Source: Escherichia coli (GTDB lineage: Bacteria > Pseudomonadota > Gammaproteobacteria > Enterobacterales > Enterobacteriaceae). Taken from it: 64,000 nt of DNA. The DNA is taken from the NCBI RefSeq assembly GCF_050920415.1, contig NZ_CP169309.1, one strand, 5' to 3'. Shown piece by piece: positions 31,406 to 34,281 of this stretch; positions within the stretch are counted from its first letter, which is position 1; each line of letters starts with the position of its first letter. A model generated the notes under the pieces. It was not told the origin of the DNA. It was given only the letters and a program-made list of their open reading frames with translations, and did not search any database. A program made the position numbers and the translations under genes.

Positions 31406-33253
31406 ATGGCAATGAACGAACGTTTTTACCGGGAAGAACTGGATTATCTTCGTCAGTATGGCGCGCTGCTGGCGCAGGAATATCCCGCCCTGAAATCTTT
31501 CCTGGGCAGTAAAAACGCTGATCCGAACGTGGAACGCCTGCTGGAAGGGTTCGCGTTTCTCTCCGGCAGACTGCGGGAAAAAATCGAGGATGAGTTTCCC
31601 GAAATCACCGTTCCGCTGATTAACCGTCAGTGGCCCAATTATTTGCGCCCCGTTCCGCCGATGACCGTTATCGAATACACGCCGGACAGCTGCAGGCTTA
31701 CCGCTCCCCTGACCGTTTCACGCGGTGAGCAGGTGATGAATCCGGGGCAGGACAGCCAGCCGGAAAACAGCCGCCCCGGTGATGAATCAGGGGCTACCGG
31801 GGGGCCACCTTCCTGTATCTTCACTTTGTGCCGTGATATCCGCCTCCTGCCGTTGTGCATTGAAACAATACAGAGTCGCAGCAGCCCGCAATCCAGTACC
31901 CTTGATCTCATTTTCACCGTGACGGGAAAAGGCCGGATCGCCACCGCCGATCTGAATCAGATCAGTTTCTGGCTGGGCGATGCGGACGAACGCAGCCGCA
32001 GCCAGCTTTATCTGTGGCTGTGCCGCCATCGGATCGGAGCCGAACTTATCGCAGCCGGGCAACATTACCCACAGCCGGATCTGGCGTTGTCTCCCGCCGG
32101 TTTCAGCGCCAGGGAATCCCTGTTGCCATCTCCCGCCGGAATGCGGGATGGCTACCGGATCTTACAGGACTGGCTCTGTTTCCCTGATGTGCTGTACTTT
32201 TTTAATCTCCGCGACGTAGTGGTGCCGGATGGCGTGCTGACCGGCAGTTTTACTCTGCGACTGAATTTTAACCGCCCGTTGCCGGAGGAACTGCACATCA
32301 GCCGCGACTCCCTGCGCCTGTACTGCGCCCCGGCGGTGAATCTGTTTGTCCATGACGCCATTCCCTTCGTACCTGACAGCACCCGTCGCGAATATCCGTT
32401 GCAGGTCAGCGAAGACTACCCGGATCATTATGATATTTTCAGCGTCAGGGGTATCCGCAACCGGGACAATGGTCCTGAACGCACCGATGGTCTGCGCAAT
32501 ATGATGTTATCCCGTGAGCAGAATGTACTCTCCCTGGATAACGATCAGCCGCGCCCGGAATATCATCGCGAGAAGAAAACCATTTACTGGCGGCACCGGA
32601 CAAAAACCGCACTGTTACGTGAAACACCGGATCATTTCATTTCGCTGGTTCATTTTGATGGCAGCACGCCAGATGCCTCCCTGATGAGCAGTGAGCCTGT
32701 TCTGGTTTCGCTGGTCTGCACCAGTGGTGACAGGCCCTGTTCGCTGGCACCCGGTGATATCTGTGAGGCAGCGGGGCAAAATACCTCCGTGGCGTCATTT
32801 TGTAACGTCACCACACCAACAAGACCTGTGCCGCCCGTACCGGATGGCTCCCTGCACTGGTCGCTGCTCAATATTATGACGCTGAACTGGCTGACCATGA
32901 ATGACGTGGAAGCCCTGAGGGATATTCTGCGTACGCTGGATCGGCATGGCATTCACAGGCCGCTGACGGCGCGCCTGTCGCCGGAAAAGCTGAACGGACT
33001 GGAGAAACTGGAAACCCTGCCCACCGATCGCCTTTTACGGGGTGTCGTGATACGCGGCCTGTCGTCCACACTGTACGTCAATCCGCAGCCGTTTTCCTGC
33101 GAAGGTGAAATGCACCTGCTGGGAACGGTGCTGTCGCACTTTTTTGCCCTGTACGCCAGCACAAACTCCTGGCATATGCTGACCATGATTAACACAGAAA
33201 CAAAGGAAGCCTGGCGATGGAAGGAAAGAACCGGTCAGTTCCCCCTGATGTAG
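31406..33253 (+). CDS. tssF: T6SS baseplate subunit TssF (ImpG/VasA family)
   Basis: 615 aa; N-terminus FYREELDYLRQYGALLAQEYPAL...DPNVERLLEGFAFLSGRLREKIEDEFPE matches the conserved TssF N-terminal block. Confidence 0.85.
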   Translation: MAMNERFYREELDYLRQYGALLAQEYPALKSFLGSKNADPNVERLLEGFAFLSGRLREKIEDEFPEITVPLINRQWPNYLRPVPPMTVIEYTPDSCRLTAPLTVSRGEQVMNPGQDSQPENSRPGDESGATGGPPSCIFTLCRDIRLLPLCIETIQSRSSPQSSTLDLIFTVTGKGRIATADLNQISFWLGDADERSRSQLYLWLCRHRIGAELIAAGQHYPQPDLALSPAGFSARESLLPSPAGMRDGYRILQDWLCFPDVLYFFNLRDVVVPDGVLTGSFTLRLNFNRPLPEELHISRDSLRLYCAPAVNLFVHDAIPFVPDSTRREYPLQVSEDYPDHYDIFSVRGIRNRDNGPERTDGLRNMMLSREQNVLSLDNDQPRPEYHREKKTIYWRHRTKTALLRETPDHFISLVHFDGSTPDASLMSSEPVLVSLVCTSGDRPCSLAPGDICEAAGQNTSVASFCNVTTPTRPVPPVPDGSLHWSLLNIMTLNWLTMNDVEALRDILRTLDRHGIHRPLTARLSPEKLNGLEKLETLPTDRLLRGVVIRGLSSTLYVNPQPFSCEGEMHLLGTVLSHFFALYASTNSWHMLTMINTETKEAWRWKERTGQFPLM

Positions 33254-34281
33254 AAAACGACACGCCCGATAGCGGAAAACGGAATGAGACACAGGCTCTG
33301 CGTGATGCCTGCTACGGCAATTTTTTTGCTGTCACCGATCTGCTGTACCGCAGTCGTGGCGATGCCATTTCACTGAGAACGGAACCGGAGCAGGAAACGG
33401 TTCATTTTCGTGCCAGTCCTGACATCGCGTTTCCCCTGCGGGATATTGAATCGCTGGAAAAAAATACCGCCGATCAGTACGTAATGACCACCCGATTTAT
33501 GGGGTTATCCGGCAGTTCATCACCATTGCCGGGTTACTATCTGGATGAGATGGCCTGGGTGCAGGCACAGGAAGGCGGCAGCACAACGGCGGATTTCCTG
33601 AACCTCTTCACCCACAGGTATACGCAATTTTTGTACCACATCTGGCGAAAATACCGCTGGTATATCAGTTTTCGTAATGGTGGAACGGATAAGATCTCAC
33701 AGCGGATCTATGCGCTTATCGGGCTGGGCAACCCGCGTGTACGGGAACGGCTGGATATCTGCCACAGCAGGCTGCTGGCTTACGCCGGAATATTATCCGG
33801 CCCCGGACGTTCACCGGCAATGATCTGCGATCTGATCGCACACTGTTTTGATCTGCATGATGTCAGACTGGAAAACTGGCAGTTTCGTCGGGTGGCTATT
33901 CCACCTGATCAGCAAACCCGGCTGGGAAGGTGTGAGCCGGATGCCGAAGGGAAGATGCAGGGTAAATCGGTGCTGGGCGTTAATTTTGTTCTCGGCTCGC
34001 GCGTACCGGATTACAGTGGGAAATTTATGTTGTGTATCAGTAACCTGTCACTGCCGCGATATATGGCCTTTTTGCCCGACGGTGAGGAATACCTGGCGCT
34101 GACCACCTTCGTGGCTTTCCTGTTGCGCGATCAGTTTGCCTGGGAGCTGCGGTTAAGTCTTGTGCCAGAGCAAATTGGTGGAATGCGGCTGGGGGATAAG
34201 AGAAGCTCTCAACTGGGGAGAACCAGTTTTATTGGTAAGCCGCCACGCGAACCCTTTGTGACCATACGGGTCAGGGGATAA
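33217..34281 (+). CDS. tssG: T6SS baseplate subunit TssG (ImpH/VasB family)
   Basis: 354 aa overlapping the tssF 3' end by 37 nt; conserved FMGLSGSSSPLPGYYLDEM block typical of TssG. Confidence 0.8.
   Translation: MEGKNRSVPPDVENDTPDSGKRNETQALRDACYGNFFAVTDLLYRSRGDAISLRTEPEQETVHFRASPDIAFPLRDIESLEKNTADQYVMTTRFMGLSGSSSPLPGYYLDEMAWVQAQEGGSTTADFLNLFTHRYTQFLYHIWRKYRWYISFRNGGTDKISQRIYALIGLGNPRVRERLDICHSRLLAYAGILSGPGRSPAMICDLIAHCFDLHDVRLENWQFRRVAIPPDQQTRLGRCEPDAEGKMQGKSVLGVNFVLGSRVPDYSGKFMLCISNLSLPRYMAFLPDGEEYLALTTFVAFLLRDQFAWELRLSLVPEQIGGMRLGDKRSSQLGRTSFIGKPPREPFVTIRVRG

Follow-up and report, generated by a model that had tools for sequence, protein, structure and literature searches.

A divergent vgrG–tssF–tssG trio on a lysV island of Escherichia coli: candidate baseplate wedge genes of a mobile type VI secretion auxiliary module

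The stretch of Escherichia coli DNA analyzed here (contig NZ_CP169309.1, 64,000 nucleotides, hereafter "the window") carries an integrative island, inserted at the tRNA gene lysV, where two genes for type VI secretion system (T6SS) baseplate wedge subunits, tssF and tssG, face a divergently oriented vgrG spike gene. With about even confidence, judging from sequence, tssF and tssG are seen as forming, together with the VgrG core, the conserved three-gene core of an auxiliary T6SS module that spreads horizontally, and that would serve as a portable spike-plus-wedge kit by which a foreign VgrG and its effector use a T6SS resident in the host. Its whole sequence matches the E. coli MFDS1022581 chromosome (NZ_CP169399.1) at 100% identity; positions in that record are obtained by adding 1,479,196 to those of the window. 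The coordinates of all described features are reported in Table 1.

Both wedge genes code for proteins matching their families over practically the whole profile. TssF scores 448 bits against NCBIfam TIGR03359 (cut-off 260, E 5e-134), residues 5–614 covering positions 2–599 of the 600 in the profile, and PF05947 is on record for a protein identical to it. TssG scores 312 bits against TIGR03347 (cut-off 143, E 3e-93; the family is also described by PF06996), residues 35–340 covering positions 6–300 of 300. An earlier note on this DNA, made from the sequence alone, had called tssF and tssG as intact and diverging from vgrG: the calls are confirmed by the full-length matches and survive the profile search, both scores being above the cut-offs. 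When compared by phmmer to the solved TssF chain of enteroaggregative E. coli (EAEC; 6GIY, 6N38), residues 5–608 align to residues 6–580 (E 1e-55), and all three parts of the architecture of that chain, namely the N-terminal helices, the central beta-barrel and the C-terminal domain, are covered (domain limits from PMC6300606). The island TssG aligns along its length to the solved EAEC TssG chain in the same two structures. The 37-nt overlap of tssF and tssG is also found in a second, resident tssF/tssG pair of the same genome, described below.

The divergent vgrG and tssF genes are separated by a 438-bp spacer, of 31% GC. Ten vgrG–tssF spacers, when aligned, are AT-rich, with a mean column identity of 49% and no interpretable common motif; a promoter scan of the spacer gave signals at background level only.

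Resident proteins were used as tblastn queries on the 64-kb window: no match was found for Hcp, TssA, B, C, E, J, K, L, M, ClpV, TagH, VasI or VasL, and the only matches were to the VgrG, TssF, TssG and PAAR of the island itself. The locus thus holds vgrG, tssF and tssG plus PAAR only, rather than the 13 contiguous core genes of a complete cluster; of the usual surroundings of tssF, a core cluster with tssE and tssG as neighbours, tssG adjoins, while tssE is absent from the window. This missing context does not decide the family membership of TssF. Two further statements of the earlier note, that other T6SS core genes are lacking nearby and that tssG is followed by unrelated genes, are therefore in agreement with what is found, the latter genes being the backbone of an integrative element.

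A complete 13-gene T6SS is present on the same chromosome, at aspV (4.13–4.15 Mb), about 2.6 Mb from the island. The cluster includes hcp, tssB, C, E, F, G, tagH, tssJ, K, L, clpV, vasI, tssA, tssM, vasL and a second hcp, and is accompanied by several vgrG-effector cassettes; it is a cluster similar to the Vibrio cholerae VAS, known as OI-7 in O157:H7 and as "T6SS-2" in PMC9144400. Island and resident proteins share 49% identity for TssF, 55% for TssG and 52–53% for VgrG. The core genes missing from the island locus are hence not contiguous with it: the complete set stands at aspV. Its presence in the genome is the precondition for one of the two possibilities raised by the earlier note, that tssF and tssG serve a T6SS encoded elsewhere, a possibility which appears plausible.

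The wedge proteins of the island belong to a separate clade. A database search with TssF returned 15 clusters 56–96% identical to the window copy, all others being at or below 51%, and island TssFs form a bipartition in 40 out of 40 neighbour-joining bootstraps. The same holds for the spike: island VgrG cores are 73–98% identical, versus 64% or less for ordinary VgrGs. No complete T6SS cluster was found to encode a TssF of the island clade, the closest being about 51% identical.

The vgrG–tssF–tssG trio recurs with the same layout at more than 16 sampled loci, from several genera and insertion sites. In the contexts examined, PAAR, cargo and VgrG genes run in one direction, TssF and TssG genes in the other, and no other core gene lies within 10 kb. 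Carriers include E. coli, Escherichia sp., Salmonella, Citrobacter, Enterobacter and metagenomic contigs; the loci reached by way of TssF come from complete E. coli genomes, from the neighbourhoods of clade members and from a scan of genome contigs. The exact TssF of the window is, by itself, present in 135 index blocks. In E. coli the module is found at lysV/xapR and at a tRNA-Asn beside yeeJ/mtfA; it lies between nadA and pal in Salmonella salamae and other Salmonella, beside mfd in Enterobacter and a relative, beside xapR in Citrobacter freundii, and is associated with Rhs cargo in Salmonella houtenae. When searched from the VgrG side, all three contexts examined hold TssF–TssG beside an island-type VgrG core. 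A scan of genome contigs with exact TssF peptide patterns, derived from one protein and therefore reaching close relatives only, identified two loci (Citrobacter sp. wls619 and Escherichia sp. MOD1-EC7003), both with the trio. Integrases differ between insertion sites (35% identity), while backbone genes are 78–97% identical; the 153-aa and HTH_35 proteins of the backbone are 78–95% identical to those of the tRNA-Asn islands, though TssF is there only about 60% identical. The trio is found only in a layout made of spike, wedge and cargo, and changes both its chromosomal site and its host genus within the Enterobacteriaceae.

Within the module, two parts with different histories may be told apart. 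For tssF, tssG and vgrG, the ratio of non-synonymous to synonymous substitution rates (dN/dS) between island copies is 0.07–0.22 in most comparisons, a rough figure, obtained from copies at 55–75% protein identity with dS near saturation; the proportion of non-synonymous differences (pN) is far below that of synonymous ones (pS). Distances calculated on the VgrG core (residues 1–480) correlate with those of TssF (r=0.98) and TssG (r=0.97; Mantel test, 12 loci), while for the VgrG C-terminus the correlation with TssF is only 0.36 at the same loci: the trio is therefore one evolutionary unit. The VgrG core is inherited with tssF and tssG, while the C-terminal part is variable and tied to the cargo. 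Recombination exchanges the VgrG C-terminus along with adaptor, effector, immunity genes and PAAR; VgrG core, TssF and TssG are a long-lived, co-inherited unit under purifying selection.

How such a unit could work is suggested by the known baseplate. In EAEC, each wedge is composed of (TssK)6(TssF)2(TssG)1(TssE)1; six wedges surround VgrG, which nucleates assembly, the central domains of the proximal TssFs dock on the OB-folds of VgrG, and loops 1 and 2 of TssG put hydrophobic residues into the TssK trimers (PMC6300606). The TssK-contact residues M228, L236, M242, L308, L319 and M325 of EAEC TssG correspond, as read by hand off a pairwise alignment, to L236, M247, L259, L325, L333 and I339 of the island protein; the resident TssG is also hydrophobic at all six aligned positions. 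Being only about 52–53% identical to the resident VgrGs, the island VgrG would be a poor hub for resident wedges, and the island would for this reason bring its own TssF2–TssG. According to the proposed mechanism, a foreign VgrG, too divergent for an efficient nucleation of resident wedges, would travel with its own TssF2–TssG heterotrimer. Island TssF would contact the VgrG hub, and the heterotrimer would borrow resident TssK, via the conserved TssG loops, as well as TssE, giving rise to a hybrid baseplate; this, in turn, would dock on membrane complex, tube and sheath of the host, and fire the DUF4123-loaded effector of the island with its PAAR tip. The formation of a hybrid baseplate is wholly inferred. 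More tentatively, with somewhat less than even confidence, the module-only TssF/TssG clade and the matched VgrG core may be seen as a portable cartridge, building hybrid baseplates on the resident T6SS, in which case wedges would be exchangeable determinants of effector host range and compatibility.

A number of observations weigh against the spike-plus-wedge reading. The module includes neither tssE nor tssK, and its wedges would be chimeric, with components at about 50% identity. Among the 31 complete E. coli genomes carrying tssFG of the island type, no more than 4 possess another tssFG locus. Island and second tssFG locus occur together in MFDS1022581, where the latter belongs to the complete T6SS, and in E7-1N7. 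The remaining carriers mostly belong to the O145:H28 clone, where the aspV T6SS is lost (PMC5567499, PMC9144400), yet vgrG, tssF and tssG are still open. Two Enterobacter-like loci (L016, L019) keep vgrG, cargo and tssF and have no tssG, while in S. houtenae (L014/L015) tssG is frameshifted: TssG is therefore not always needed for module retention. Co-divergence, even at r=0.98, could come from physical linkage alone. Finally, the central domain by which TssF binds VgrG has not diverged further between island and canonical proteins than it has among canonical ones of similar overall identity: identities of the N-terminal, central and C-terminal parts are 0.61/0.41/0.60 in island-canonical pairs and 0.70/0.48/0.64 in canonical ones. 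An unusual divergence of this domain had been expected; the pattern turned out to be the general one.

Some of these observations would fit the other possibility raised by the earlier note, that the pair was left from a complete T6SS cluster, once located here and later deleted, and is now a decaying, functionless orphan. No other core gene is found nearby; the related O145:H28 island, whose cargo is replaced by the insertion sequence (IS) IS3, is left in a host that lacks a T6SS altogether; and a frameshifted or missing tssG is seen in some relatives. The window copy, however, does not look like a degenerate remnant, in which truncation, frameshift, relaxed selection or a deletion junction specific to the locus would be expected: open reading frames are intact, with full-length profile matches, and dN/dS stays at roughly 0.1–0.2 across deep divergence. 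An identical three-gene layout recurs at more than 16 loci, in different sites and genera; att repeats are clean, the empty site of K-12 never held a cluster, and no parent cluster with a TssF above about 51% identity was found. A remnant is, on these grounds, very improbable, and this alternative of the earlier note is not supported.

A different explanation takes linkage as sufficient: tssF and tssG would have been captured once along with vgrG and would persist by linkage to the selected VgrG-effector cargo, maybe as interchangeable spare copies of resident genes, with no specific match to the island VgrG. Neighbouring genes co-diverge by linkage, the VgrG-binding domain is not specially diverged and some modules survive without tssG, all of which fit such passive hitch-hiking. 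Yet linkage does not preserve some 2.9 kb of open coding sequence, at a dN/dS in the range of 0.1–0.2, through a divergence down to 55–65% identity. Recombination breakpoints, moreover, fall inside vgrG, not between vgrG and tssF, so that the core trio stays while cargo is exchanged, and the island-type VgrG core stands beside island-type TssF whenever approached from the VgrG side (three contexts out of three). Hitch-hiking is considered unlikely, while still deserving some weight.

TssF conservation also bears on a third explanation, in which the pair builds no productive hybrid baseplate and has been exapted to a different, possibly antagonistic role: TssF–TssG might hold the VgrG-adaptor-effector-PAAR complex in a stable state before firing, or compete with resident wedges and spikes, in such a way that the island effector monopolizes firing, as a selfish cartridge. 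Island TssFs score lower than the resident one on the family model (422–490 versus 549 bits). Compared with canonical proteins of the same overall identity, TssFs of the island clade show lower conservation of the N-terminal helical stem, the part in contact with TssE and the sheath (0.65 versus 0.75), and higher conservation of the C-terminal domain (0.76 versus 0.68); spike-specific accessory complexes are, besides, known (Tvp proteins, PMC13373197). On the other hand, the TssK-contact residues and the three TssF domains are kept, as a working wedge requires, and there is no direct evidence of inhibition or of a role outside the baseplate: the explanation is quite improbable, a little more so than hitch-hiking. 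The shift in conservation from the N-terminal stem to the C-terminal domain might be an adaptation to the TssE and sheath of different hosts.

Traces of the lost or altered systems are seen in some carriers. In O145:H28 strain RM13514 (record 243–245 kb) the aspV T6SS is cleanly deleted: the terminal hcp and a gene fragment are left beside yafV, and the leftover Hcp protein is identical to the MFDS1022581 copy. Homologs of 5 out of 22 "T6SS-2" genes have been reported in O145:H28 strains (PMC9144400); these five presumably include the island trio. Tools counting tssF and tssG matches will over-call partial T6SSs. In complete Salmonella genomes (L029/L030), vgrG is split into 128 and 576 aa, with an IS605-family insertion nearby.

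The module may be compared with several known systems. Auxiliary vgrG/PAAR modules, such as V. cholerae Aux, the mobile modules of Vibrio parahaemolyticus and the vgrG-Rhs islands of E. coli, are similarly located far from the main cluster, and contain VgrG, a DUF4123 protein, a putative effector, a possible immunity gene and PAAR; they depend, as the island would, on a main T6SS encoded elsewhere, and their cargo is likewise swapped by recombination (for the concept, see PMC10763514, PMC13098142). The lysV island agrees with this type of module, its VgrG, DUF4123, candidate effector and PAAR genes lying at a distance from the main cluster which its host possesses. The literature searched takes hcp, vgrG or PAAR as the defining genes of auxiliary modules, while the island adds tssF and tssG of a module-only clade. 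V. cholerae Aux3-type elements resemble the island in that T6SS cargo rides on a short element, equipped with a site-specific recombinase and flanked by att repeats. Aux3 consists of genes for PAAR, effector and immunity, is not known to include VgrG or baseplate genes, and its integrase and site differ from those of the island.

The TssF and TssG of the resident aspV cluster, and those of the EAEC Sci-1 wedge (6N38, 6GIY), belong to the same families, and have the same lengths and domain coverage, with conserved TssK-contact positions. The resident genes, though, are preceded by tssE and followed by tagH, tssJ and tssK, all missing beside the island pair, which is divergent from vgrG, located on a mobile island and part of a separate clade. 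The i2-iii cluster of Enterobacter bugandensis and the partial loci of Klebsiella resemble the island in lacking most core genes; these derive from deletions in place, or are split clusters in which many core genes are kept (PMC10763514, PMC6580597), whereas the three-gene set of the island is constant, mobile and under selection. The Tvp complexes of Serratia (PMC13373197) offer a parallel, as a particular VgrG-PAAR spike there needs dedicated helpers on a shared T6SS; Tvp proteins (DUF2169 and DUF4150), however, have no relationship to TssF and TssG, nor are they baseplate subunits.

Auxiliary modules and tRNA islands are both known kinds of elements. Wedge genes in such a module, and a TssF/TssG clade confined to modules, appear to be new: no description of a mobile vgrG–tssF–tssG module was found in T6SS reviews and in pan-genome surveys (E. 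coli, Enterobacter, Klebsiella, plasmid-borne systems), although an earlier mention is possible, the EcoSal E. coli review being outside the scope of the search. Auxiliary modules are usually seen as spike, tube and tip genes, with effectors, acting on a fixed machine, while this one brings wedge subunits too. Should the wedge genes be functional, one T6SS could assemble alternative or hybrid baseplates, and spike-baseplate compatibility would be a barrier to effector exchange, solved by mobile elements carrying both parts. VgrG-TssF specificity could then be addressed directly by experiment, as matched and mismatched pairs, at about 50% identity, occur naturally in the same cell.

Table 1. 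Location of the features of the lysV island within the window
Feature	Position	Strand	Description
attL	23749..23763		15-bp direct repeat TGGTGGGTCGTGCAG, copy of the tRNA-Lys 3' end; far island end, just past the PAAR gene
PAAR	23928..24227	-	99 aa, spike tip, last gene of the vgrG operon; PF05488, phrog_281, RefSeq annotation
cargo gene	24224..24937	-	237 aa (252 aa from upstream start); no family match
cargo gene	25015..25944	-	309 aa, 38% GC; no family match; possibly immunity/accessory
cargo gene	25947..26972	-	341 aa, 40% GC; no family match; possibly immunity/accessory
candidate effector	26972..28303	-	443 aa, directly downstream of the DUF4123 adaptor; role suggested by position
DUF4123 adaptor/chaperone	28323..28898	-	191 aa; PF13503, RefSeq annotation; weak match to Tla1 chaperone model
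vgrG spike	28895..30967	-	690 aa; TIGR03361, 600 bits
putative divergent vgrG/tssF control region	30968..31405		31% GC; little conserved among island variants
tssF	31406..33253	+	615 aa; baseplate wedge subunit, island-specific clade
tssG	33217..34281	+	354 aa; baseplate wedge subunit; 37-nt overlap with tssF
isrK-like RNA match	34376..34454	+	Rfam, 53 bits, above gathering score; start of backbone
C4-antisense-like RNA match	34476..34565	+	Rfam, 68 bits, above gathering score
backbone genes	34617..35329	+	153-aa hypothetical protein and 84-aa HTH_35 (Nlp/SfsB-like) regulator; stop/start overlap
EFASI RNA match	36034..36162	+	Rfam, 99 bits, above gathering score; just before the gene for the 294-aa protein
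"integrase domain" protein	after EFASI match, to 37104	+	294 aa; Phage_int_SAM_2 and Integrase_1
P4-type tyrosine integrase	38250..39461	-	403 aa; Arm-DNA-bind_3, Phage_int_M, Phage_integrase; phrog_1, E 4e-57; adjoins tRNA
tRNA-Lys(UUU), lysV	39727..39802	-	ARAGORN, Rfam; 3' 15 nt (39727-39741) are attR

The cargo operon, on the side of vgrG opposite to tssF, codes mainly for proteins with no recognizable family. The 443-, 341- and 309-aa products have no match in NCBIfam, PHROGs, PADLOC, precomputed Pfam and PDB sequences, and the 237-aa one has none in the first four of these. The 443-aa protein contains a strong hydrophobic stretch, detected by hydropathy at residues 300–329, and is probably a membrane-targeting T6SS effector.

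An integrase stands beside a tRNA gene, direct repeats bound the island on either side, and the site is empty in K-12, as described for P4-like islands integrated at tRNA genes. The attachment repeat TGGTGGGTCGTGCAG has three exact matches in the window (23593, 23749 and 39727), with none expected: the copy at 23593 is native, being found also in K-12, while that at 23749 is specific to the island. In K-12 MG1655, lysV and xapR are separated by 264 bp and the island is absent, so that the earlier note, which had described K-12 as lacking a T6SS, is right as far as this locus is concerned. From the att repeats, the integrase adjoining lysV and the empty site of K-12, the island is taken to span about 23764–39726 (~16 kb). 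GC content is mosaic: 38–47% in the cargo, 53–56% in vgrG/tssF/tssG and 53–58% in the backbone.

In the sequence between xapR and lysV (region 23593–23763) lies a native repeat unit of 156 bp, in which a terminator is combined with 18 nt, the first ones of the tRNA-Lys 3' end; its annotation is RtT RNA (Rfam, 51.6 bits). Since K-12 has it too, the repeat predates the island, attL being its second copy.

The backbone begins about 80–100 bp past the tssG stop codon, and homology to several hundred E. coli islands devoid of tssFG starts from about 34358: the T6SS genes are therefore cargo of a common integrative backbone. Several hundred complete E. coli genomes that lack tssFG contain the homologous segment (34358–37784), including the 153-aa open reading frame, the HTH_35 gene and the integrase-domain gene, with a nucleotide identity of about 85%; the segment is there often accompanied by HigA or ash genes. 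The possibility that the 153-aa open reading frame is a hidden TssE was considered and rejected: it has no family match, travels with the HTH/integrase backbone in those same islands and, in S. houtenae, is placed far from tssF. The isrK-like, C4-like and EFASI matches resemble an antisense-controlled switch of the phage P1/P7 or Gifsy type, which could govern the behaviour of the island.

Outside the island, the variable end of the resident T6SS region (record 4.105–4.126 Mb) is heavily rearranged: one vgrG is split by an IS21, and the region also contains an IS2, fragments of ISAs1, the reverse transcriptase of a group II intron, and cassettes for effectors of the Tle1-like and Tae4-like types. 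A copy of IS2 is also found in the window, inserted between yfeH and yfeR (about 16911–18139); the identical transposase (WP_088895425.1) is encoded inside the resident T6SS region.

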